Shown: positions 8,807 to 21,036 of the stretch, in pieces
Position numbering within the stretch: the stretch's first letter is position 1
How the letters are laid out: the number at the start of each line of letters is the position of its first letter
Origin: a virus
Lineage: Duplodnaviria > Heunggongvirae > Uroviricota > Caudoviricetes
Virus record (IMG/VR): IMGVR_UViG_3300023371_001771
Coordinates: 64,001-104,273 of that record
Length of the DNA: 40,273 nucleotides
Strand: one strand, 5' to 3'
Notes under the pieces: model-generated
The model's input: the letters and a program-made list of their open reading frames with translations, nothing else
What the model was told of the DNA's origin: nothing
Databases searched by the model: none
Program-made: the position numbers and the translations under genes

Positions 8807-9043
8807 GTGGAACGCACAGTTAACGACATTCTAAATGATATTATAGAACCAATTGTAGGAGACACGCCAGTGTCAGTTCAACTAGCAACTGCGCTCAACG
8901 GTATGGCCAGCAAAGAAGATGTGGACGCTTTAAGGTCAGACCTTAAAGCGCTCTGTAAAGAAGTTGAAAAATTAACTGAGCTAGTTGGTGACATTTCTGT
9001 GTCAGAACAAATAAATATGGCAATTAACAAGTCTGAAAATTGA
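8807..9043 (+). CDS. Short coiled-coil fibre-like protein, 78 aa
   Basis: GTG 8807 follows GAGGTG. Carries two VGD.xVSxQ motifs that also occur in the longer fibre genes. Confidence 0.55.
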   Translation: MERTVNDILNDIIEPIVGDTPVSVQLATALNGMASKEDVDALRSDLKALCKEVEKLTELVGDISVSEQINMAINKSEN

Positions 9044-9093
9044 TGGCTTGTTTTTTTGAATTTGAAAATTGATAATTCAAAGGAGGACTTAAC

Positions 9094-9792
9094 ATGTCCG
9101 AAAAAATTTTTAATTCGAGAATTATTCATAAACATGATATTGAGGCGCATTGGCTGCTTGCGGTAAATTTCGTTCCCAAGCAGGGCGAAATCATTGTTTA
9201 TGATATAGATTCTGCACATAATTATGAAAGAGTAAAAATTGGTGACGGCAAAACCAATGTAAACGCGTTGCCATTTTATGCTGGTAGCTGGAATGATCTA
9301 TCTGATAGACCGTTTGGAGATTATGCAGATGGAGTTCATCAGCTCGACGCAAAATACATCCCATCAACAATCGCACGCTTAACCGATATACCAAGCACCG
9401 ACACAACCTTATCAGTTGCAGGCGCTCCCGCAGATGCCAAAACTATTGGTGACACAATTAGTTCGCTAGGAACTATCGTCGGTGCCGTTAATGGCAGAGT
9501 AGACGAAGTAAACACGCTTATTGGTGATACTTCGGTTAGCGACCAAATTAGCTCTGCGCTTGATAAAGCCACCGCAGATGACTTTGGTGTATACGTTCAA
9601 GACACTGAGCCAACTGATGCGGTTGCAGGTGACATTTGGGTTGATACCGCAAACGACCCTGCTTTTATTGAACCAAATCTACCAGAAGTCACCGCATCCG
9701 ATAATGGCAAGGTGCTCATGGTAGTGAATGGAAAATGGCAGGCTGTAAATCTCAATCTATCCATCGACGCTAATGGCGTTGTGTATATGTAA
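9094..9792 (+). CDS. Fibre protein with Mtd_N-like (hyaluronidase N-terminal type) head, 232 aa
   Basis: RIIHKHD..W...FVPKQGEIIVY...VKIGDGKTNVNALPF; near-empty KPFG/KYIP cassette; C-terminal EP....GDIWVDT. Confidence 0.65.
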   Translation: MSEKIFNSRIIHKHDIEAHWLLAVNFVPKQGEIIVYDIDSAHNYERVKIGDGKTNVNALPFYAGSWNDLSDRPFGDYADGVHQLDAKYIPSTIARLTDIPSTDTTLSVAGAPADAKTIGDTISSLGTIVGAVNGRVDEVNTLIGDTSVSDQISSALDKATADDFGVYVQDTEPTDAVAGDIWVDTANDPAFIEPNLPEVTASDNGKVLMVVNGKWQAVNLNLSIDANGVVYM

Positions 9793-9806
9793 GGAGGTGG
9801 GTTGAT

Positions 9807-10157
9807 ATGCCAGTATTAAAGATTAAAAAAACTGATGGAACTTGGCAAGAAGTTTGGGGCGCAATTGCTAACACTTCTGCGGCCAGCGCACCAAAGCTCA
9901 CTAGTGTAAAGATGTTGGCTAGTGCATGGGCTGGAACGAGCCAGCCTTATTCTCAAGTTGTTGCATGCAGCGGCGTAAACGCAAACAGTAAGCTTGACTT
10001 GCAGCCCACACCTGCGCAGATTGTTGCGCTACAGGATGCGGAAATTTCATTGATGTTAACCAACAACAATGGGGTTGTGACTGCATGGTCTATTGGCAAT
10101 AAACCTACTTCTGATTATACAATGGATGTGTTAATCACGGAGGTGGTTAATGTATGA
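9807..10157 (+). CDS. Small beta-rich virion protein, paralog of 11459-11770
   Basis: Shared W.G...PY.QVV...G....S..DL.P...Q...T..IG.KP..DYT..V.ITEV pattern. Confidence 0.6.
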   Translation: MPVLKIKKTDGTWQEVWGAIANTSAASAPKLTSVKMLASAWAGTSQPYSQVVACSGVNANSKLDLQPTPAQIVALQDAEISLMLTNNNGVVTAWSIGNKPTSDYTMDVLITEVVNV

Positions 10158-10624
10158 GCATTTATGGCAATGCAGTAGGCGGCACCGCACCTATTAAGAC
10201 GCTTATCATGACCGATGAAGACGGGAATGAAATCACTGGTGTAGTTACTGGATCTGAAGTAATATTTGACGCCACGCCAGCCGACGTTAGAATTGGAAAA
10301 AAGTTTGCCAGTAACGAAGGTATTCAGGTTGGTGAACTGGTTGTTTCATCAAGCTACGGATCTATAGTATTGTCTGCTAATAGTGAAGCAGCCATTCCGG
10401 CTCCAGAGTACGAATACAGCCATTTAATGGTTACAATATGCCGTTATGATACAAATGAGGAGCAAAGTGTAGTTCCCATGTATGTATCAGTTGGTGACGC
10501 AATGTATGATGCAATCAGTGGCACAAAGTTGTCTGACATTGCTGTTGACACAGAAAATGGGCAGATTAACTTGGGCATCACAGTAAACGAAGAATATGTG
10601 CTGAGATATTGCGTTATAGGTTAA
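10154..10624 (+). CDS. Hypothetical fibre-associated protein, 156 aa
   Basis: ATGA overlap with the previous gene. Confidence 0.55.
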   Translation: MSIYGNAVGGTAPIKTLIMTDEDGNEITGVVTGSEVIFDATPADVRIGKKFASNEGIQVGELVVSSSYGSIVLSANSEAAIPAPEYEYSHLMVTICRYDTNEEQSVVPMYVSVGDAMYDAISGTKLSDIAVDTENGQINLGITVNEEYVLRYCVIG

Positions 10625-10678
10625 TAATATTAATAACATAAAACTAATGATAAAACCTCGTAAAAGGAGGGAAAGAAA

Positions 10679-11401
10679 ATGGCACAATATGTAACGAAGA
10701 TTAAAACAGATGCAGGTGACTTGCAAATTGACTATAATGCGCTGGCCAACCTACCCGATGTTGTTACTAAAGAGTACGGCAATGATACCTATGTAACAAA
10801 AGAACTTGGTGCGGCCACATATGCTCCACGTGGTATGGTTTCTCAAACAGTAAGCTATGGCGCAGACGATGATGAAGATGCTATTCTTATGGAGCTGTTT
10901 GCGGCAACACCCAACAATACACAGAGAGTAGTTTATGCAGTAAATAATGGCTCTCCATGGTTTTGGACCATCGCAAAGACATCAGAAGACTATGGTTGTG
11001 TAATTGCATATAAGTATGGATATTGGGGTACGCCATTCATAAAGTATAAAAATATTTGGGGCGGAACTGTTGGTAGCGAATGGAGTGTTACAAATCCTGA
11101 AATGGAGCCAGGTGTTGAATATAGAACTACAGAATATTGGCGCGGTTATCCAGTATACACTAAATTAGTTGACTTTGGGGCGCTGCCAAAGAGCGCCAAA
11201 AAGTCTGTTTCTTATACAGATGTTAGCGTTCGTTCTGCTATTAGATGTTCTGCCACTACTTCTGCAGGAGATACCATTCCATTAAAGAACGGGAGTCAAG
11301 AATTAGCGATTTACGCATCTAATAAAAATATTCATATCACATCCAACTATGACGCAAGTAGTATGACTAGCTATGCGCAAGTGTGGTATGTTAAAAATTA
11401 A
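10679..11401 (+). CDS. Tail-fibre-like protein, 240 aa
   Basis: C-terminal GVEYRTTEYWRGYPVYTKLVDFGALP...VWYVK resembles phage fibre tip domains. Confidence 0.55.
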   Translation: MAQYVTKIKTDAGDLQIDYNALANLPDVVTKEYGNDTYVTKELGAATYAPRGMVSQTVSYGADDDEDAILMELFAATPNNTQRVVYAVNNGSPWFWTIAKTSEDYGCVIAYKYGYWGTPFIKYKNIWGGTVGSEWSVTNPEMEPGVEYRTTEYWRGYPVYTKLVDFGALPKSAKKSVSYTDVSVRSAIRCSATTSAGDTIPLKNGSQELAIYASNKNIHITSNYDASSMTSYAQVWYVKN

Positions 11402-11409
11402 TAATACGT

Positions 11410-11442
11410 AGGAGTCAACTATCCCTTGGCTCCTTTTAATTT
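11410..11442 (+). terminator. Intrinsic terminator-like hairpin
   Basis: AGGAGTCAA-CTATCCC-TTGGCTCCT followed by TTTAATTT. Confidence 0.5.
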
Positions 11443-11458
11443 AAAAGGAGGGATATAA

Positions 11459-11770
11459 ATGGCAACAAAACGAGTTCAAATTATTGGTTCTCTGCTTAAG
11501 CCTAGTGCAAAAATATCTAATGTAGAGCTGTTGTCGGCAAACTGGATGGGTGATGCAAGCCCATATTATCAGGTAGTTGATGTCGAAGGTGCGACACCAT
11601 GTAGCCAGGTTGACTTGACTCCTAGCATTGAGCAGTTGAATATTTTCTACGAAAAAGATTTGAGTTTTGTAACCGAAAATGAAGATGGTATTGTAACTGT
11701 ATATGCAATTGGTCAAAAGCCAGAGAATGATTACACTATTCAAGTCACCATTACGGAGGTGAGCTCATGA
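11459..11770 (+). CDS. Small beta-rich virion protein, paralog of 9807-10157
   Basis: Same motif pattern as 9807-10157; SD AGGAGG. Confidence 0.6.
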   Translation: MATKRVQIIGSLLKPSAKISNVELLSANWMGDASPYYQVVDVEGATPCSQVDLTPSIEQLNIFYEKDLSFVTENEDGIVTVYAIGQKPENDYTIQVTITEVSS

Positions 11771-12414
11771 GCAAGATTATTGGCGTGACTGTTGGAACAC
11801 CATTGCCTAAGCCAAATTTTAAACAAACTGACCCCACCAAGGGTGATTATATTAAAAATAAACCCATATTATCTACAGTTGCTACTTCTGGTTCTTGGGG
11901 CGATCTCAAGGATAAGCCGTTCGGTGAAGAGGGTTGGACTATTGAGTGGGACGGCGATATAACCGACAAGGAAACTGTGACTTTGGACGGGCTGGAGCTT
12001 GTGCGCGTTTCTGACAACACGATTGCGCTTTCCGATGTACTGGGTAGCGTGGTGAGTTATGAGATTTCATACGATGGTGTTGAAACAAGAACATTCTGTG
12101 TCACCGAGGATTGTGTTGCTGACGGCGAAGGATTGATGTTTGCAATTACACACACAGGCTCTGATACTGGTGTTCCGATTGTTATAATTTGCAATCAAGA
12201 CTTGGGAGAGTATGGCATATCAATGCGTGAGGGCGTATATTTCGCAAACAAATTTGTGCATGCGCGTTCTATTTCCAGTACAACCATCAAGACCATCGAC
12301 GAAACCTACATCCCAGACACAATTGCTCGCGCATCAGATGTTGAAGCGAACACTTCTGAGATAAATGCATTCACTCCTATCACTTATGCTGAAATTGAAG
12401 CGCTTTTCGATTAA
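11767..12414 (+). CDS. Cassette-type fibre protein, 215 aa
   Basis: SWGDLKDKPFG-[122 aa]-TIDETYIPDTIAR; ends ITYAEIEALFD. Confidence 0.6.
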   Translation: MSKIIGVTVGTPLPKPNFKQTDPTKGDYIKNKPILSTVATSGSWGDLKDKPFGEEGWTIEWDGDITDKETVTLDGLELVRVSDNTIALSDVLGSVVSYEISYDGVETRTFCVTEDCVADGEGLMFAITHTGSDTGVPIVIICNQDLGEYGISMREGVYFANKFVHARSISSTTIKTIDETYIPDTIARASDVEANTSEINAFTPITYAEIEALFD

Positions 12415-12526
12415 TTAAATAATCAACAAATGCATGTAGGCCATTAATTTAGCCTATTTTTTATAGACATATATTATATTTATTTTTATATTATTTAAAA
12501 TTTAAATAGCAAAGGAGAAATTTATT

Positions 12527-14458
12527 ATGGCTGAAATTAAAAAGTATTTATCTCTTGATAGACTGGCACAGTACGATGCTCTAATCAAAGCAAAGATTGA
12601 TAATGATATTTCTGGCGTAAATGCTTCTATTTCTGATATTACATCTGGTTCTACAGTAGTAAAGAAGGCTGAAGAAGCTACTTCTGCAACAAAGGCAACT
12701 CAGGATGCTTCTGGCAATGTAATTACTGATACATATGAAACCAAAACTGATGCTCAAGCAAAATTAGATGAAGCAAAAGGCTATACTGATACTGCCGAAG
12801 CTAATGCCAAGGCGTATGCAGACGGCAAGGACGCTGCTATTCAGGCCGCTCAAAAGGCTGGCGATGATGCTGCTGCTGCCGCTGGTGTTGCCGATGGTAA
12901 AGCTGTTAAGGCTCAGGGTGATGTTGACACTTTGAAGGGCTACGTCGGCACTATTCCTGCTGATGCAACTGCAACAAACGTTGTCGCTTATGTTCAGGAG
13001 AAGACTGCTGGCATCGCATCTGAAAGTGCAATGATTGAGTTGGGCAATCGTGTTGGTGTTGTTGAGGGCAAAGTTGCTACTATTGAAGGCGATTATTTAA
13101 AGGCTGCTGACAAAACCGAACTTCAGAATGCTATCGACGCTAAGGTTGCTCAGACCGATTATGACACTAAGATGGGTCAAATTGACGAGAAAACTGAGAG
13201 CTTGCAGACTCAGATTAATACTATTATGAACAACCCTGATGCTGAGGGTGCTATTAACTCTATTAATGAGTTTACTAAGTATGTTGAAGATCATGGCACT
13301 ATCGCTGACGGTTTCCGCGCTGATATTGACAAGAACAAGGATGATATTGCTGCTGAAGTGAAGAGAGCTGGCGAAGCTGAGACTGCTTTGTCTGGTCGTT
13401 TAGACACCTTGGAAGCTATCAATCATGATGCATATATTGCCGCCGACGAAGCTATGAAGAATGAGCTTGATGGCGATATTGCCGATCTTGCTGCTGCTAT
13501 TGAAGCTGCTAAGACAGATGCTGCCAATAAGGATGCCGTTGTTCTTGCTGAAGCCCAGAAAGCCACTCAAAAGGCTGCTGTTGCTGCTCAAATTAAATTT
13601 AACGAATTGAATGAAAAAATTGTGCAGAGCGACTGGTCTGTAAATGACGAGAGTGATTCTGCTTATATTAAAGGCAGAACCCATTGGGTTGAAGAAGGGT
13701 CTTATGAAGTCAGTGGAACTTTTGATGGTGATATTAGTTCTAAGACGTACATGAAGGAGCTTGGTGGTGCAAATAAGGGCTATGTTCGATTAACAAGTGA
13801 TACTATAACAAATTTTGATAATTTTATAGATGGTGAAATTATTCTTTATGATGAAAAAAATGATACCGATTATCGTTATAGTGTAGATATTGTTAAAATA
13901 AATAATGATATAAGTGCCACGGATAGAGTCGTTGCTGGCACTGTTTATGGTTTCGCTTCTAGTGATGGAGATATAATTATCGCAACAGAAGGCAGCGCTG
14001 GACTTGTAACAGTTTATGCTGGTGGTAGACAAGGGATGCGTGTCCCGCTAACAGGCCCTGGCATTTGGGTATGGTACGACAATAGCGGCACCAATTTAGT
14101 TAAGATGGAATATATTTCTAGTTATAGTTTCAGATTTGCAGATGAAGTGGCTCATCCATTAGATGAAAAATTTATCCCAGATTCTATTGCGCGTGAGTCT
14201 GATATTGAAGCTCTTGAGAGTGCCGACAATGCTCTATCTGGACGTTTGGATGCTCTGGAAGCTATTGATCATAGCCATAGTAATAAGACTATTCTGGATA
14301 GTATTACTGCCGAAAATATTACCACTTGGAACACTGTTACTTCTAAGGCTGCACAAGCAGATTTAACTGCTGTTGGCGACAGAGTTACTGCAATTGAGAC
14401 TTGGCGTGATAATTTCGTTGAAATTTCTGAGGAAGAAATTAACGGCATGTTCGCCTAA
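12527..14458 (+). CDS. Ala-rich coiled-coil fibre with inserted globular cassette, 643 aa
   Basis: Heptad-like Ala/Asp/Glu/Lys-rich stalk; QSDW..ND..AYIK-[156 aa]-PLDEKFIPDSIAR; begins KKYLSLDRL and ends EISEEEINGMFA. Confidence 0.65.
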   Translation: MAEIKKYLSLDRLAQYDALIKAKIDNDISGVNASISDITSGSTVVKKAEEATSATKATQDASGNVITDTYETKTDAQAKLDEAKGYTDTAEANAKAYADGKDAAIQAAQKAGDDAAAAAGVADGKAVKAQGDVDTLKGYVGTIPADATATNVVAYVQEKTAGIASESAMIELGNRVGVVEGKVATIEGDYLKAADKTELQNAIDAKVAQTDYDTKMGQIDEKTESLQTQINTIMNNPDAEGAINSINEFTKYVEDHGTIADGFRADIDKNKDDIAAEVKRAGEAETALSGRLDTLEAINHDAYIAADEAMKNELDGDIADLAAAIEAAKTDAANKDAVVLAEAQKATQKAAVAAQIKFNELNEKIVQSDWSVNDESDSAYIKGRTHWVEEGSYEVSGTFDGDISSKTYMKELGGANKGYVRLTSDTITNFDNFIDGEIILYDEKNDTDYRYSVDIVKINNDISATDRVVAGTVYGFASSDGDIIIATEGSAGLVTVYAGGRQGMRVPLTGPGIWVWYDNSGTNLVKMEYISSYSFRFADEVAHPLDEKFIPDSIARESDIEALESADNALSGRLDALEAIDHSHSNKTILDSITAENITTWNTVTSKAAQADLTAVGDRVTAIETWRDNFVEISEEEINGMFA

Positions 14459-14486
14459 TTTAAAGTCGTTTGATTAATAATATGTA

Positions 14487-14517
14487 GAAAGACCCTTTAA
14501 TTAGGGTCTTTCGTTTT
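14487..14517 (+). terminator. Intrinsic terminator
   Basis: GAAAGACCCT-TTAATT-AGGGTCTTTC followed by GTTTT. Confidence 0.75.
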
Positions 14518-14537
14518 AAATTAGAAGGAGAAATTTT

Positions 14538-15908
14538 ATGGCAAAGATTGATATTACCTTTAATAATAAAAATTACTCTATTCACGAATCCTCTCTTTCT
14601 GACGTTTCTGACGCTTTAAAGTCTCACTTATCCACTACCATGAGTGGTTCTGGTGCAATGATTAATCTTGGTGGAGATTCTTATAGTGTTGATTCTGAAA
14701 AGTTATCTGCTGCTACTAATGCTTTTGTTTCACATTTAGGCACTATTACTGGTAGTAGTTCTAAGGTTGTCGTTGGTGAAAATGAGTATGGCATTGATTA
14801 TAATAAGGTCAATGAGGCGATTTTGGAATTGGAAACTGTTTTAAGCAATTTACATAATTCTGACAGTCCTGATATTCCGATTGCTAAAAATGTTGTGTTA
14901 GAAGTTAATAAAATAACAGATACTACCTATGTAGATGATACTGCTTATAACGACGAAGAATTTATTTTGCTTAATATCTATCCAAAAACGAATGGTATGA
15001 TTTTTATCACCTATGGTGATTTGACCAAAGTCATTATAGATACAAGTGGGGCAGCAGAGCCAGCTAAACAGCAAGTTTTCTTTGGTACTTTTAATGGCGT
15101 ATCTGACTCTGTAACAACACCTTCTAGTGGCATATTGACGATTGAGGGCGATTATAGAGATTTTGGTGTAGGATCATATGATACTAAGCATAATTTTAAT
15201 TTTTATAATGGCATAACTGCTGTTCATGATTTTGGAAATGTTACTAGTCTTGATCGTACATTCTGGGGCTGTACAAATCTTACAAGCATAACTATTCCTA
15301 ATAGCATTACCAGTATTGGTTATAGCGCATTCCAAAATACAGGTCTTACAAGTGTTATTATCCCCGATAGCGTTATTAGTCTTGGTGATAATGCGTTTAG
15401 AGATTGTGTAAATCTTACAAGCGTTACTATTCCCAATAGTGTTACTGATTTAGGTAATAATACGTTCTGGGGCTGCACAAGCCTTACGAATATCACTATT
15501 CCCAATAGCGTTACTAGTATTAAACATTATGTATTCCATGAATGTACGGGTCTTACAAATGTAATTATTCCTGATAGTGTCGTTCACATTGGTCAGGAAG
15601 CGTTCTATGGCTGTACAAGCCTTATGAATATTACTATTCCCAATAGTGTTACTGACATTTCTGGTAGCGCATTCCAAAATACAGGTCTTACAAGTATTAC
15701 CATTCCTGATAGTGTCGTTCACATTGGCATGGAAACATTCTCTAATTGTACAAATCTTACAAGTGTTAGTTTTGACAATACAGATGGTTGGTTCGTTTCA
15801 AAACATAGTACTGCCACGAGTGGCACACCTATAGATGTAACAGATCCTGTTGCGAATGTGACACTGTTAACTGACACTTATAGCAATTATTATTGGAAAC
15901 GAGCTTAG
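14538..15908 (+). CDS. BspA-type (LRR_5) leucine-rich repeat protein, 456 aa
   Basis: About 8 repeats of (V/I)T(S/D)IG..AF..CT.LT(S/N)ITIP(N/D)S. Confidence 0.85.
   Translation: MAKIDITFNNKNYSIHESSLSDVSDALKSHLSTTMSGSGAMINLGGDSYSVDSEKLSAATNAFVSHLGTITGSSSKVVVGENEYGIDYNKVNEAILELETVLSNLHNSDSPDIPIAKNVVLEVNKITDTTYVDDTAYNDEEFILLNIYPKTNGMIFITYGDLTKVIIDTSGAAEPAKQQVFFGTFNGVSDSVTTPSSGILTIEGDYRDFGVGSYDTKHNFNFYNGITAVHDFGNVTSLDRTFWGCTNLTSITIPNSITSIGYSAFQNTGLTSVIIPDSVISLGDNAFRDCVNLTSVTIPNSVTDLGNNTFWGCTSLTNITIPNSVTSIKHYVFHECTGLTNVIIPDSVVHIGQEAFYGCTSLMNITIPNSVTDISGSAFQNTGLTSITIPDSVVHIGMETFSNCTNLTSVSFDNTDGWFVSKHSTATSGTPIDVTDPVANVTLLTDTYSNYYWKRA
15323..15727 (+). repeat. Exact intragenic repeats in the BspA gene
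   Basis: 31-nt TAGCGCATTCCAAAATACAGGTCTTACAAGT at 15323 and 15665; 26-nt ATTCCTGATAGTGTCGTTCACATTGG at 15567 and 15702. Confidence 0.9.
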
Positions 15909-16094
15909 AACTAAATAAAAATTACTAAATACAAGAGGGGATTTTGCTATCCCCTCTAAATGAGCATTCTATTAGAAATATTTCTAAAGAAAATCTTAAT
16001 CACATATTTAATTAGTACTCATGTATAATGCGCAAATACATGGCTATTAGTTAACTAAGCTGACAAATTATAAATTTTGAAAGGAGATTTCAAA

Positions 16095-16796
16095 ATGCCT
16101 GATTCAATTAAAAAATATTTGTCTCTTGATAGATTGAAAAAATATGACGAGTTGATCAAGACAAAGATTGACAGTGATATTGCCAATCATAAGCATAGCT
16201 GGAATGAGTTGAACGATAAGCCGTTCGGCGAGGAAAGTATTGAGCGCATCGAAATTGATATGATGGGACAGACTATAGGATTCTTGAAAGTTTCGGACAA
16301 TACTGAGCTCGCTGTATCTCCTGCGGCTGATGGTATGGCAAAAGTTTGGCGTACTATATCAGAAGTTTCTGACTTTAATAACGCACCGTGGGTGTTGGTA
16401 GATGATAAAGTCGCTGCAATTTCTGAACTGATGGTACTTGTATTTTTTGAAGATGTTGAGAATTACGAAGTGGAAGAAATCGTCTTTAATGCAACAAAAG
16501 GCGTATACTTCATGGACACTAGGGCACTGGGCTATGAAGCCTTTTTATCTGGATTTGCAAGCGATTCTAAAGCTACTGAACCTGAAATCACTTGGGATGG
16601 TAATGATTCATATATTAAGCAGCTTGATGAAAAGTATATTCCAGATACCATCGCTCGCGTAGAAGACATTCCAGAGATCGAAGTCGCTACAGACGAAGAA
16701 GTAATTACAATGCTAATGGAACTAGATATGCTCCCAACATTCGTTGATAGCGAAGGAGCTCTATTAATTGATAACAATGGTTCAATTCCAATTTAA
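16095..16796 (+). CDS. Cassette-type fibre protein, 233 aa
   Basis: ATG 16095 follows AGGAG. KKYLSLDRL N-terminus as in 12527; SWNELNDKPFG-[130 aa]-QLDEKYIPDTIAR. Confidence 0.6.
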   Translation: MPDSIKKYLSLDRLKKYDELIKTKIDSDIANHKHSWNELNDKPFGEESIERIEIDMMGQTIGFLKVSDNTELAVSPAADGMAKVWRTISEVSDFNNAPWVLVDDKVAAISELMVLVFFEDVENYEVEEIVFNATKGVYFMDTRALGYEAFLSGFASDSKATEPEITWDGNDSYIKQLDEKYIPDTIARVEDIPEIEVATDEEVITMLMELDMLPTFVDSEGALLIDNNGSIPI

Positions 16797-16808
16797 GGAG
16801 GAACTTAT

Positions 16809-17993
16809 ATGACAAACATTAATTTAAAAAATATTGCAAATATTCCTGTTGTAGAAAGCATGAGTGATAATACTCATTTACTTGCGGAGCAGGAAGGAAA
16901 TTATGTAAGAGTACCAAAAAATAGTGTTAATGGTGGTGGCTCTGACATCCCAATGTCGCGTGGACTTAAAAAAGTTGTCTATAACGGCAATAAGGACGAT
17001 TATGAAATAGTTGATATGGATGAAATGTGCTTTGTACGTGTCATGGAAGACGTTATTTCTGAAGACGATCTAATTGGTGGAAAATGTACATATTTTTGGA
17101 TAATAGAAAGTAATACAAAAAAAATTACTGATGAAATGATTTTTGTAGCATCAGAAAATATTGTAGGCGTCGATGTTGCAGGCACGCTTATAATTCTCTT
17201 ATGCTCACAAGATGGTAGTACCTATAACGACTTAACATTCAATAAAGGTGTATATGTTACAGACAATGGCAGTGATAAAGTTATTCAATCATTTGAATAT
17301 TATGGAGAAGTAATTAGCCAAGATATCCTTCCGCGAGATATTGTTTGTGACTGGTCAAATATAACTAATAAACCATTTGGTGAAACACCAATCGAAATTG
17401 TATCTGAATTTGAATGTGAATTTTCAGATAGTTATCCATATAGCAACATTACATCAATTCCTCCATTTACTATTGAAGATAAAAAGAAATATACCGTTAT
17501 ATGGGATGGAGAAACTTATACCTGTACAGCAGACATTAATTGTTTTGGAGATGCTAGTTGTCAAATTGCACAAGTACAACCATCAGAAGAGCCATTTTAT
17601 ATGCTAATGAACGAATATGGTGAAATAGAAATATATGCAGAATCTCCAGGAATGCATACTATAACCATTTATGGCGAAGAAACATATACTATTGATCCCA
17701 GGTATCTTCCACCTGAGGCGGGTTGCAGTGCGTTAAATGTTGTGGTTGAAATGTATAATTCTGATTATATATGTGACACCACTCGCGAGGCTATTGCAAA
17801 CGCACTCAACTCCAGAAAGCCAGTATATATTACGCTTGTAGATTTTAATATTGGATCTGGTATTGTAATGCAAATGTACCCATTAAAAAGGTTGGTATTT
17901 GAAGAAAACGGCAATATTAATATGGAGTTTGAGGGCGACCATCGTATTACATATAACACGGACGAAATGATTTTTGAAACCATACCTTCTTAA
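16809..17993 (+). CDS. Multi-domain fibre-like protein, 394 aa
   Basis: DWSNITNKPFG-[102 aa 'GEPF' domain]-TIDPRYLP. Confidence 0.6.
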   Translation: MTNINLKNIANIPVVESMSDNTHLLAEQEGNYVRVPKNSVNGGGSDIPMSRGLKKVVYNGNKDDYEIVDMDEMCFVRVMEDVISEDDLIGGKCTYFWIIESNTKKITDEMIFVASENIVGVDVAGTLIILLCSQDGSTYNDLTFNKGVYVTDNGSDKVIQSFEYYGEVISQDILPRDIVCDWSNITNKPFGETPIEIVSEFECEFSDSYPYSNITSIPPFTIEDKKKYTVIWDGETYTCTADINCFGDASCQIAQVQPSEEPFYMLMNEYGEIEIYAESPGMHTITIYGEETYTIDPRYLPPEAGCSALNVVVEMYNSDYICDTTREAIANALNSRKPVYITLVDFNIGSGIVMQMYPLKRLVFEENGNINMEFEGDHRITYNTDEMIFETIPS

Positions 17994-18000
17994 TACATAT

Positions 18001-18031
18001 AAAGGCGGTAGTTTAATTCTACCGCCTTTTT
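18001..18031 (+). terminator. Intrinsic terminator
   Basis: AAAGGCGGTAG-TTTAATT-CTACCGCCTTT followed by TT. Confidence 0.75.
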
Positions 18032-18055
18032 AACTAAATAACATGAGGTGATTAA

Positions 18056-19882
18056 ATGGAAAAACTAACACCTTTAAATGGTTTACGCAATAGTATTGCG
18101 TCAATAAAAAGTATTTTAGACACAAAAGCAAATAAAGAAGATATCCGAGCAAACGTACAACCAGACTGGAACCAGAATGATGAAACGGCAGATGATTATG
18201 TTAAGAATAGGCCGTTTTATACTGGTGAGCCTAAGTCAATCACCGTTGAGATTTTGCCAGAAATAAATAGTGCATCCATTGAGGGTGATATTATACTTTC
18301 AGAACCTTTGGTAGAAGGTAGAACTTATACCGTTACATGTGATGGTATTGAGTATGAATGCGTTGCACGCAATTATGATGGTTATTTGATGTTGGGTAAT
18401 AATGCAATTTATGAATATGATGGGGATATTACAACTGATACTGGTGAACCTTTTGCAATGGAAACAGAAGAAACAAGCACAACATTGTGGGTGTATATGG
18501 CAGAAGAAAAAGATTTTACTTTGTCAATTTCTTACTCTGTAATTCAAGAAAATATCGTAAAGCTTCCTATGAAGTATCTACCCGACGGATATCCATATAA
18601 AGAAAGCTATTCTGGAGAAATTGTACCAGAGACTACAATAAATATTGAAAGTACAGGCGATCCTGTTTTTGATCCGTTTGTAATTGAGTTTGTGGCTGGT
18701 GGCATTTATAATGTAACTTGGGATGGCATTGAATACGAATGCGTGTCATACATTGTCCAAGGCCCAAATTCTCCAAGTATCGGTAATGGAGAAATTGCGG
18801 GTGTAAACGGAGGTAATGGAGAGCCATTTTTCTGTACGGTTTACGAAGGTCAAGTAATGTTGTTTGCAGCCGAAGTTGGTACGCATACAATTTCAATAAG
18901 TGGTACAATAGAAAAAGTTGTTCAAATGTCAAGCGAATATATTCCGAAGTTTACAATCAATGTTGATGTAACATACGACCCGCATCCCAACGCGAGTGCT
19001 GCATATTTTTGTACAATGGACAAGAGTGTGGCAGAAATTGCAAAAGCATACCTTGGTGGACTTGAAATGCGAGCCATAAACAAAGAAACGGGAGAATATT
19101 ATATTCTGGAAACTGCAAAACAAGGTACGTTTGGCGATTGGGAATTTGATTTTGTAAACTGGAAGATTGATGGCGACATTCATTTTAAACACTTGCACAT
19201 GTGGACTCCGAGCAGCGGCGATGCGGTCGCATTGTATACAACAGAACAAGCCAATGCCATATATGAAGGAACCAATAATACTAATTATTTGGCGTCAGTA
19301 CCGGCGGTATGCGATTTTGTAAACTCTAAATGTTATATCAGCTATAACGAACAAGAATTAACAGAAGAGCAACAAGCTCAGGCAAGAAAAAATATTGGTG
19401 CAGCAAATTCAAAATCTGTTGATTGTATCAATTTGGTTGACCAAGAAAATGGTTACACATATGCCGTTTGTATGCGCAATGGTACTCTTGTAACATATTG
19501 TCAGATTGAGAAAATAGAAGTAACAACTATGCCCAACAAAACTGAGTATATGGTTGGTGAAATATTCGACCCAACAGGAATTGTAATAACAGCAACTACC
19601 TATGATGGAGTATCAAAGGAAGTAACGAATTTTGAATATGACACTACGCCTATCACAGATAGTACATCATATGTAAAGGTTACTTATACTGAGGGAGGCA
19701 TGAGTCATGCTGTCGAAGTTCCTGTAGCAGTAATACCATTTGATCCTGAGATTGTTCTTGTTGACTTTGATTATACAGATAATGGCAATGGAACTTATAC
19801 GATTACTGGTTGGAAAGAAACTTATAGTGGTCAACCAAGTACAGAACTGATAATTCCAAACAATAGTTTAGTTATATTGTAA
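18056..19882 (+). CDS. Multi-domain fibre/adhesin with two 'GEPF' domains and an Ig-like domain, 608 aa
   Basis: QPDWNQND..DYVKNRPF anchor; QELTEEQQAQARKNIG; IEVTTMPNKTEY.VGE.FDPTG (Big_3-like); ends in a BspA N-cap-like segment. Confidence 0.65.
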   Translation: MEKLTPLNGLRNSIASIKSILDTKANKEDIRANVQPDWNQNDETADDYVKNRPFYTGEPKSITVEILPEINSASIEGDIILSEPLVEGRTYTVTCDGIEYECVARNYDGYLMLGNNAIYEYDGDITTDTGEPFAMETEETSTTLWVYMAEEKDFTLSISYSVIQENIVKLPMKYLPDGYPYKESYSGEIVPETTINIESTGDPVFDPFVIEFVAGGIYNVTWDGIEYECVSYIVQGPNSPSIGNGEIAGVNGGNGEPFFCTVYEGQVMLFAAEVGTHTISISGTIEKVVQMSSEYIPKFTINVDVTYDPHPNASAAYFCTMDKSVAEIAKAYLGGLEMRAINKETGEYYILETAKQGTFGDWEFDFVNWKIDGDIHFKHLHMWTPSSGDAVALYTTEQANAIYEGTNNTNYLASVPAVCDFVNSKCYISYNEQELTEEQQAQARKNIGAANSKSVDCINLVDQENGYTYAVCMRNGTLVTYCQIEKIEVTTMPNKTEYMVGEIFDPTGIVITATTYDGVSKEVTNFEYDTTPITDSTSYVKVTYTEGGMSHAVEVPVAVIPFDPEIVLVDFDYTDNGNGTYTITGWKETYSGQPSTELIIPNNSLVIL

Positions 19883-19896
19883 GGTGGTGAAAAGAT

Positions 19897-21036
19897 ATGA
19901 TAAATTTTAGACAGTACAGCAATGTAACTAAAATTGTAATTCCAGATGGAGTTACTTTAACAAACAATAATTTTGCTTCAAAATTTATGTATTTAAGCAA
20001 TCTTAAAGAAGTTAAATTGTCCAATAAGATTACTCGTATTAGTGCGGCATTTACTTCATGTGGAAGTTTAGTCAGCCCTATTTGTGGTGACAATATAACT
20101 GAAATGCAATATGCGTACAATTCATGTTATAATTTGATTGGTCCGCCTGTATGTGGAAAGAATGTTATCAATATGGCTTCTGCGTATAATAATTGTTGGA
20201 ATTTAACTGGTTCGCCCGTATGTGGTGATAATGTTACAAATATGTCCTCAACATATACTAATTGCAGAAATCTGACAGGCTCGCCTGTGTGTGGTAAGAA
20301 TGTAACTAGCATGATAGCAACATACAATTATTGTCAAAAATTAACTGGTTCCCCTGTTTGCGGTGAAAAAATTACAAATATGTGGCGTACATATTATGGC
20401 TGTAGCAATCTAACAGGCTCTCCTGTTTGTGGAGATAATGTTGTAGATATGTATGAGACATATTGCAGTTGTGTTAATTTAACTGGCTCTCCAGTGTGCG
20501 GTAATAAAGTGACTAATATGGCAAATACATATAGATCCTGTAGAAATTTAACTGGTTTTCCCGTATGCGGGCATAATGTTACTACATTGGATTACGCATA
20601 TTCTAACTGTTCAAATCTAACTGGTTCGCCTGTTTGTGGGCCTAAGGTAACAGATATGATGTTTGCATATCAATCCTGTTATAACTTAACAGGTTCTCCT
20701 GTGTGTGGAGATAGTGTTGTAGATATGTATGGTACATATCAAAATTGTACAAATCTATATGGCAATTCTTATTTTTATTCTGTAAGTGTAAATCGCGCTA
20801 CAGGTTGCTTTAAAGGTCGCAATACTGCAAACATTCTACGCATTTACACAGTAAAGAATTCTACCACAATGACAACACTACTAACCAACAACACTTCTTC
20901 CCTCGTCGGCGCAGCCATCACATGGACTGATGACATCACAACAAACGGCTGCTATTACAACACCCAATACAACATTTACATCTACCCCGTAGATGATGTA
21001 GCCGCCGCACGTACAGCAAACGGCGATGACGAATAA
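19897..21036 (+). CDS. 23-aa Cys-rich LRR-variant repeat protein A, 379 aa
   Basis: 9 full repeats of V(T/V)xMxx(T/A)YxxCxNLTGSPVCGxx plus a C-cap containing NGCYYNTQYNIYIYPV. Confidence 0.8.
   Translation: MINFRQYSNVTKIVIPDGVTLTNNNFASKFMYLSNLKEVKLSNKITRISAAFTSCGSLVSPICGDNITEMQYAYNSCYNLIGPPVCGKNVINMASAYNNCWNLTGSPVCGDNVTNMSSTYTNCRNLTGSPVCGKNVTSMIATYNYCQKLTGSPVCGEKITNMWRTYYGCSNLTGSPVCGDNVVDMYETYCSCVNLTGSPVCGNKVTNMANTYRSCRNLTGFPVCGHNVTTLDYAYSNCSNLTGSPVCGPKVTDMMFAYQSCYNLTGSPVCGDSVVDMYGTYQNCTNLYGNSYFYSVSVNRATGCFKGRNTANILRIYTVKNSTTMTTLLTNNTSSLVGAAITWTDDITTNGCYYNTQYNIYIYPVDDVAAARTANGDDE
20095..20715 (+). repeat. Nine coding 69-nt tandem repeats
   Basis: TTAAC(T/A)GG(T/C)TC.CC.GT.TG(T/C)GG recurs every 69 nt. 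Confidence 0.9.

Follow-up and report, generated by a model that had tools for sequence, protein, structure and literature searches.

Six genes between positions 9094 and 19882 of a 40,273-nucleotide stretch of viral DNA (hereafter the window, which forms the final 40 kb of the 104-kb record IMGVR_UViG_3300023371_001771) encode fiber proteins in which short conserved peptides, referred to as joints or anchors, flank inserted domains. The explanation that we consider likely, taken as a whole, is that the domains of these fibers are modular and have been exchanged at the shared joints over evolutionary time. The inserts are not arbitrary sequence but two unrelated, undescribed β-sandwich families, A and B. 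The process is slow mosaic evolution of a kind known for phage host-recognition proteins, not a new switching mechanism; the novelty lies in this pair of joints, in the two domain families, and in a closed, "empty" form of the unit. The phage is uncultured, SPbeta-like, about 171 kb in size, and derived from animal feces, and it probably infects a member of the gut Clostridia; the region 9094–19882 is part of its array of fiber and adhesin genes.

The joints were located by a regular-expression scan of all six reading frames, and positions are given throughout in window coordinates. Two forms of left joint (L1 and L2) and one right joint (R) are distributed over the six genes, each named after its first position, as follows.

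9094–9792, + strand: short fiber protein 9094 (232 amino acids, aa), in which an Mtd_N-like N-domain and an empty cassette precede a helical shaft and a conserved C-terminal domain
9286–9378, + strand: the empty cassette of 9094, composed of L1 SWNDLSDRPFG (9286–9318), the 8-aa turn DYADGVHQ (9319–9342), and R LDAKYIPSTIAR (9343–9378)
11767–12414, + strand: fiber protein 11767 (215 aa), with an L2-type motif (11806–11865), L1 (11893–11925), a type A domain (11926–12291), and R (12295–12330)
12527–14458, + strand: long coiled fiber 12527 (643 aa), with L2 (13625–13687), a 156-aa insert (13688–14155), and R (14159–14194)
16077–16796, + strand: fiber protein 16077 (239 aa), with L1 (16197–16229), a type A domain (16230–16619), and R (16623–16658)
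16809–17993, + strand: fiber protein 16809 (394 aa), with a type A domain (16953–17315), a degenerate R (17316–17348), and L1 (17349–17381)
17382–17993, + strand: distal half of fiber protein 16809, with a type B domain (17382–17687), a degenerate R IDPRYLP (17691–17711), and a C-terminal domain
18056–19882, + strand: fiber protein 18056 (608 aa), with L2 (18158–18220), a type B domain (18221–18562), and LPMKYLP (18563–18583)
to 19882, + strand: distal part of fiber protein 18056, with a type B domain (18599–18925), MSSEYIP (18926–18946), and further domains including Big_3 (Pfam)

L1, with the pattern SW.DL.(D/N)(K/R)PFG, occurs once each in genes 9094, 11767, 16077, and 16809. L2 (DW..ND followed by Y(I/V)K; in its fuller form DW.Q.D....DY(I/V)KN(K/R)(P/T)(F/H)(Y/W)) occurs in genes 12527 and 18056, where DW..ND stands at 13631 and 18164, within QSDWSVNDESDSAYIKGRTHW and QPDWNQNDETADDYVKNRPFY, and the N-terminus of 11767 holds an additional motif of this type. 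R ((L/I)D.K(Y/F)IP..IAR; in its fuller form (V/I)x(T/Q)(L/I)D.K(Y/F)(I/L)P..IAR) stands at 9343, 12295, 14159, and 16623. Every match lies in the coding frame of a real + strand gene, and the other frames contain none. The first-pass annotation of this DNA had described left and right anchors that bracket inserts of 7, 122, 156, 130, and 102 aa; the motifs lie where it had placed them, and translation returns the same lengths, the shortest insert counting as 7–8 aa. The right anchor is intact in 9094, 11767, 12527, and 16077, and is only degenerate in 16809 (IDPRYLP) and 18056 (LPMKYLP and MSSEYIP). A separate feature of 11767 concerns its first ~30 residues (11767–11865), which carry an I-I-G-V-T-V-G-T-P-L-P-K-P ... 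D-Y-I-K-N-K-P motif. About 60 proteins that are unrelated in the rest of their sequence begin with the same stretch at 94–97% identity, suggesting that it is an attachment peptide under very strong conservation.

Both their spacing and their classification by profiles identify the inserts not as free-form sequence but as two recurrent domain families of fixed size. In database relatives, of which about 330 were compared, the distance between joints is most often 100–139 aa. This range separates a left joint from the next right joint in 36 of 48 pairs among 185 proteins that searches with 11767 and 9094 had retrieved, and in 83 of 113 pairs from the best 150 of the 251 cluster representatives (50% identity clusters) that an exhaustive HMMER search with 16809 recovered at E ≤ 1e-3. 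The joints of these best 150 follow the order LR, LRLR, and so on, with up to seven units in tandem. Most of the HMMER matches span residues ~179–303 of 16809, corresponding to left joint, insert, and right joint, and there are up to seven such stretches per protein. Profiles built from the database inserts were applied to 188 inserts, assigning 30 to A and 148 to B (one, from 11767, matches both) and leaving 11 with neither, in a sample that is biased toward B because 16809 served as the query. Type A is recognized by W-D-G-x-T-x-G near its start, Y-K-V-S-D, and G-V-Y-F near its end, and type B by Y-x-V-x-W-D-G-x-x-Y-x-C, then T-G-E-P-F, and then H-T-x-x-I; aligned against each other with hhalign, the two families reach a probability of 3%.

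Within the window, the profiles assign to type A the inserts of 11767 (E 2.4e-26) and 16077 (E 3.2e-14) together with the N-terminal domain of 16809, a further domain located upstream of L1 in that gene, and to type B the C-terminal insert of 16809 and both repeats of 18056 (E 7.8e-22 and 6.5e-28). Direct comparisons link the N-terminal domain of 16809 to the insert of 11767 (E 6e-8), the two repeats of 18056 to each other (E 2e-12), and the second of these to the C-terminal insert of 16809 (E 3.5e-8). The insert of 12527 resembles type A without reaching significance (BLASTP against the 11767 insert, E 0.15) and was recruited by neither profile. No Pfam family matched any of 93 segments of the alignment from the 16809 search, the profile of that alignment found no match among PDB sequences, and no Pfam or PHROG family matched the module in the module-bearing proteins of the window.

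The proposal that the anchors delimit exchangeable units is borne out by orthologues, which differ in the presence, number, and family of units between the same anchors. Orthologues of 9094 are 54–72% identical to it in the N-terminus up to L1, and similarity resumes with the right joint and the shaft behind it; the site in between is occupied by 8 aa in the window and elsewhere by type A, type B, A followed by a B-like domain (relative L006), or A followed by A. In relative L003, the gene upstream of the 11767 orthologue, which is the counterpart of the 103-aa gene of the window, is 76% identical, and the syntenic orthologue of 11767 itself retains the N-terminal motif, L1, and R and has type B where the window has type A. 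Relatives of 16809 are organized as N+C (133 aa), N+A+C (266 aa), or N+A+[L1-A-R]+C (405 aa), compared to N+A+[L1-B-R]+C in the window, and the nearest relative of its B insert (45–54%) is found in a protein with a quite different context. The proteins P0338 and P0339 share their N-domain (80%) and A insert (67%) and use L1 and L2, respectively; since the same insert can thus stand behind either, the two left joints are interchangeable forms. In P0187, a 78% identical relative of 16809–17993, similarity ends midway through the type B domain, after residue 227. Its tail reads like out-of-frame sequence, and the break probably stems from a frameshift or from faulty assembly and does not mark an exchange.

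The same boundaries are visible in the DNA. The window and L003 are homologous from 11440 up to 11864, where the L2 motif has its last codon, and again from 12298, a position within the right joint; a bovine-gut contig also loses its match at 11864. At 9094, homology ends at 9320 in relative L006 and at 9317 in relative L023, in both cases within two bases of the end of L1 at 9318. In each of these three comparisons, then, DNA homology to relatives runs out in the final codons of the left joint, and in one of them it returns at the right joint. The first-pass annotation had reasoned that, if it were wrong, relatives would carry the same inserts and breakpoints would not favor the anchors; instead, the inserts differ, and both protein and DNA similarity break at the anchors. 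Two characteristics of mosaic tail-fiber adhesins, the class typified by T-even gp37/gp38, are present: short conserved motifs flank the variable segments, and exchange junctions lie in or beside these motifs at the protein and DNA levels. Where the first alignment ends was also recorded for all 108 longer homologues of 9094: it does so at residue 61 in 36, at residues 73–79 (the end of L1) in 19, and only rarely elsewhere. Residue 61 marks the edge of the N-terminal domain, and the 36 proteins that break there have no L1.

The closed form of the unit is found in five proteins including 9094, with the anchors joined by (D/E)-x-(A/D/T)-(D/E)-G-x-(V/I)-x-(Q/T), and its context varies: it occurs behind L1, behind L2, and between filled units. 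Homologues of 9094 comprise 288 proteins of near-equal length and 108 longer ones. Among the 120 best of the former, the empty form is present at that position only in 9094 and a filled cassette in 7, while most have no cassette and other middle modules instead. The N-terminus of 9094 scores 19 bits (E 0.0013) against Mtd_N (PF18454), below the gathering threshold of 26.3 bits, and several homologues have a precomputed PF18454 match. The 9094 family as a whole (9094–9792 in the window, homologues P0337–P0456) ranges from a 139-aa minimal form consisting of the N and C domains only to more than 1000 aa, and among the middle modules that can replace one another are a coiled L-V-G-D-T-x-V-S-E-Q-I segment and S-G-K-G-L-S-T-N-D-Y-T repeats.

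Predicted structures are available for two of the fibers. In the AlphaFold2 model of 16809, which has a mean predicted local distance difference test score (pLDDT) of 77, domains A (residues 49–169) and B (residues 191–293) are confident β-sandwiches with block means mostly between 86 and 97, apart from a weakly modeled loop at 246–257 in domain B, and between the two lies a linker of lower confidence with short helical turns, made up of the degenerate R and L1. Domain A gave no telling fold match. The best matches of domain B are phage receptor-binding tip domains, namely 6e1r (Z 5.1, root mean square deviation (rmsd) 4.1, 90 residues aligned), 4a0t (T7 gp17; Z 4.5, rmsd 3.0, 79 aligned), and 5m9f (phage K gp144; Z 4.4, rmsd 3.4, 82 aligned); these matches are weak, and no fold is assigned to the domain. 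With the whole 16809 model as query, Foldseek found nothing in the PDB at E ≤ 0.001, a search of the AlphaFold DB clusters found nothing telling, and the BFVD matches were gut-phage proteins without names, apart from one entry named "major tropism determinant". In the ESM Atlas, the feature and structure matches were all below a meaningful level.

The cassette of 9094 has a pLDDT of 54–63 in the monomer model. Modeled as a trimer, 9094 scores 0.81 compared to 0.18 for the best control; in the calibration of this score, 20 of 30 proteins solved as one-chain pairs reached that mark, compared to 1 of 23 single-chain ones. At least 82% of the contacts agree between runs, and the partner pLDDT is at least 82. 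The predicted interface comprises residues 60–75 and 81–96, which cover both anchors, and residue 94 contacts residue 94 of another copy. The turn residues 76–80, which occupy the site of the domain in relatives, are not listed as touching in any copy, which is not proof of absence. The first-pass annotation had described the anchors as hinges; their place in the modeled inter-chain interface points to a fixed joint more than to a flexible hinge.

At the nucleotide level, the anchors had been read as micro-homology crossover points, and the inserts as compositionally unlike their host genes. The observation behind the former is correct in that the 14-nucleotide stretch GATAAGCCGTTCGG occurs exactly twice, at 11911 and 16215, in two left anchors. 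With the codon usage of the window, two DKPFG peptides share all their codons with a probability of about 0.06 per pair, and over all pairs identical residues are encoded by identical codons 13 times in the left anchors (13.4 expected) and 24 times in the right anchors (23.6 expected). Because nucleotide identity at the joints equals what codon usage predicts, it is a mere shadow of the conserved peptides and lends the micro-homology proposal no support of its own. Nor do the inserts stand out in composition, as the difference in G+C between insert and rest of gene (+0.044, −0.053, +0.036, and −0.026) is inconsistent in sign and within the range of windows of the same length from these genes.

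The anchors had also been suggested to permit exchange without an invertase or reverse transcriptase, and this part stands. The 104-kb record, which is 63% complete, contains no Resolvase-family gene and a single reverse transcriptase, located ~38 kb upstream of the window on the − strand (G000:C1:26154–26789; locus L022:1060–2319). This 419-aa protein gives a full-length match to class UG27 of the defense-associated reverse transcriptases (E 2.7e-204) and adjoins a DUF932 gene. No template/variable repeat was found, and the 9 kb around the gene share no repeat with the rest of the record. In this incomplete record we thus find neither the parts of a diversity-generating retroelement (DGR), that is, a DGR-type reverse transcriptase and a template repeat matching the variable repeat of a target, nor those of an invertase switch, that is, a serine invertase and inverted cassettes with crossover sites, all fiber genes being on the + strand. 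The RecT, ERF, RecA, and Rad52 families have no match in it, a result from which no conclusion can be drawn at 63% completeness. Swaps within the population, which the annotation had envisaged, were not seen among near-identical copies, comprising 22 contigs and further fecal runs, which indicates evolutionary mosaicism and not an operating switch. Two sets of contig joints were considered and set aside: those at 15.2–15.7 kb, in a leucine-rich-repeat gene, derive from other organisms, and a contig joining 16096 to 18167 is not trusted, as its shorter side has only 30 letters at 80% likeness.

These results lead us to propose the following model. The six genes encode fiber proteins, probably trimeric to judge from the modeled geometry, that are built from a small set of parts: a left joint (L1 or L2, interchangeably) leads into a β-sandwich of 100–140 aa from family A or B and from there into the right joint, and such units occur singly, in tandem, or closed, in which case a turn of four residues connects the joints. 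The joints would stay constant because they form the shaft, being located in the inter-chain interface of the trimer model, and as builders of the shaft they would be the sole stretches common to otherwise unrelated fiber genes, always in the same codon phase. Rare recombination in or beside the joints, between co-infecting phages, prophages, or paralogues, would then produce in-frame, foldable chimeras, and selection would retain those that adsorb to new host surfaces. The A and B domains presumably bind host surface structures, and the joints themselves may guide the crossover, as opposed to selection filtering crossovers that occur at random. A more far-reaching version, which we regard as doubtful, is that the joints constitute a "plug and socket" standard shared by many phages of gut Clostridia. 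They would pack on the trimer axis and present the inserted domain sideways, so that unrelated families could be plugged, stacked, or removed without disturbing the fiber; the closed x-A-D-G turn would be an empty socket, and the joints would be selected partly for evolvability.

Several observations weigh against exchange at the joints. Breakpoints cluster not only there but also at an ordinary domain edge without a motif, residue 61 of 9094, and the clustering at joints may therefore merely reflect selection for intact domains. Within the genome, any nucleotide-level sign of recombination at the joints is absent, the longest exact shared run being 14 nucleotides. The 22 contigs encoding an identical 11767 protein have the same gene sizes and order in every listed neighborhood, and contigs of four fecal or gut runs have no junction at any anchor, rare variants being invisible in contigs. 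On the structural side, domain B resembles phage receptor-binding tips only weakly (VIA-align, Z ≤ 5.1), and the trimer score of 9094 may lean on the likeness of its N-domain to solved Mtd-type trimers and comes from a run with its own alignment and three copies, unlike the calibration.

Some of these points would be expected if the anchors were merely the conserved ends of ordinary fiber domains, which undergo tandem duplication, loss, and divergence within lineages while the joint sequences play no part in crossover. This alternative, which we consider rather unlikely, fits the fixed spacing of 100–139 aa, the inclusion of both anchors in the type B HMMER matches (~179–303), the lack of excess nucleotide identity at the anchors, and the position of the commonest 9094 breakpoint at residue 61. 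It does not readily explain why two families without detectable relation use the same joints, why five proteins retain the joints without a domain in between, why the same insert stands behind L1 in one protein and L2 in another, or why a single site is filled by A in one of two syntenic orthologues and by B in its counterpart. Active diversification by a DGR, an invertase shufflon, or frequent switching of cassettes within the population is far less probable still. The reverse transcriptase upstream and the resemblance of the 9094 N-terminus to Mtd_N, the N-domain of the DGR target of phage BPP-1, might suggest it, but the enzyme is of class UG27, no repeat links it to the fibers, the record has no Resolvase-family gene, and all cassettes lie on one strand; moreover, gene sizes are the same in the 22 contigs, and two further fecal runs are colinear with no junction at the anchors. 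As the motifs are short, their recurrence could in principle be due to chance or low complexity. This is refuted by shuffled homologues, which contain the left motif 0–1 times compared to 118 in the real set, by the exclusive occurrence of the window matches in fiber coding frames, and by the recurrence of the pair with fixed spacing in hundreds of proteins. Exchange of domains at shared joints thus remains the explanation that we prefer.

Mtd of Bordetella phage BPP-1 is a trimeric host-recognition protein that is diversified by mutagenic retro-homing of a template repeat into its C-type lectin tip. The N-domains of 9094 and of many homologues are Mtd_N-like, and both would be trimeric host-recognition proteins, the 9094 trimer being a model. 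The present fibers differ in having no template/variable repeat, in the UG27 class of the reverse transcriptase, and in the exchange of whole domains. In the receptor-binding gene of Streptococcus thermophilus phages, the segment for host specificity, variable region VR2, is flanked by collagen-like Gly-X-Y repeats, which Duplessis and Moineau reportedly thought, in 2001, to promote exchange. The flanks of VR2 are repeats at the DNA level, whereas the joints described here are shared at the peptide level only, with nucleotide identity as codon usage predicts.

A closer parallel is provided by the gp37/gp38 adhesins of T-even phages, in which conserved glycine-rich motifs separate hypervariable segments (Trojet et al. 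2011, PMC3157838; Tetart et al. 1998, cited there). There, as here, the variable recognition segments are set off by short motifs of high conservation, which make up the structural core. The variable parts of gp38 are loops of a few to tens of residues in one monomeric domain, whereas here whole domains of 100–140 aa from two unrelated families are exchanged, stacked, or omitted, and gp38 recombinants have been obtained experimentally, whereas exchange is here read from sequence comparisons. The module-bearing proteins do not belong to the gp38 family, as they have no Pfam match in the module and the insert consensus has no glycine-rich motif series. The binding regions on the conserved scaffolds of Klebsiella phage receptor-binding proteins are stated to diversify by recombination "at and beyond domain boundaries" (Panicker et al. 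2026, bioRxiv 10.64898/2026.05.12.724579). These are conserved N-terminal scaffolds with swapped distal modules, mostly depolymerases, whereas the units described here are internal, have joint peptides on both sides, and belong to phages of gut Clostridia. Finally, the mosaic adhesive trimer (MAT) fibers of Bdellovibrio bacteriovorus are phage-like trimers with chimeric, diversified binding tips within the paralogues of one genome (Caulton et al. 2024, PMC10769870). They are cellular proteins of a predatory bacterium with diversity at the tip, and the abstract describes no left and right joint motifs of this kind.

The assignment of the phage rests on its genomic context. Contigs encoding an identical 11767 protein are up to 171 kb long, and in one of them the YonB, YomW, and YomU tube genes, structural genes of the SPbeta type by which an SPbeta-like phage is recognized, lie just upstream; the upstream genes have precomputed matches to PF27364, PF27256, and PF27173, as they do in relative L003. 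Several fecal metagenome runs contain the same DNA as the window. A search of genome contigs with a degenerate DNA pattern for the left anchor found it also in contigs binned with Oscillospiraceae, Eubacteriales, and other Clostridia and with an Akkermansia metagenome-assembled genome. Every long open reading frame in 9094–21036 is on the + strand and has a fiber-like product. A megablast search with 9000–20000 found no match in a phage genome collection, and a literature search for the motif strings, in which subscription journals are thinly covered, returned nothing relevant.

Some further features of the array may be mentioned. Two small paralogous genes, 9807–10157 (116 aa) and 11459–11770 (103 aa), each abut a fiber gene, and in relatives the counterparts occupy the corresponding place, with 76% identity in L003 and a length of 116 aa in L005 and L023. 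A role as partners of the fibers, for example as chaperones or adaptors, is possible. The BspA-type leucine-rich-repeat gene at 14538–15908 has very high contig depth at 15220–15840 in the fecal runs and draws many false contig joints from other organisms, its repeat being widespread in those fecal samples. The longest nucleotide repeat between fiber paralogues is a direct repeat of 76 nucleotides with 78% identity (12535–12610 and 16106–16181), which encodes the K-K-Y-L-S-L-D-R-L motif shared by the N-termini of 12527 and 16077.

Because the hosts are rarely cultured, hardly any work has been done on how phages of gut Clostridia recognize them. The two domain families, which are widespread (type B matches at least 251 clusters), and the joint peptides allow annotators to parse "hypothetical" fiber genes into modules, and the natural in-frame junctions, exchanged many times, could help to design chimeric fibers or to predict which part of a fiber determines host range. 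Should the plug-and-socket version be true, anyone engineering receptor-binding proteins of gut phages would find in the joints a ready-made site for grafting. The finding opens no new theme, but adds a clean case to one that has been known since the 1990s.

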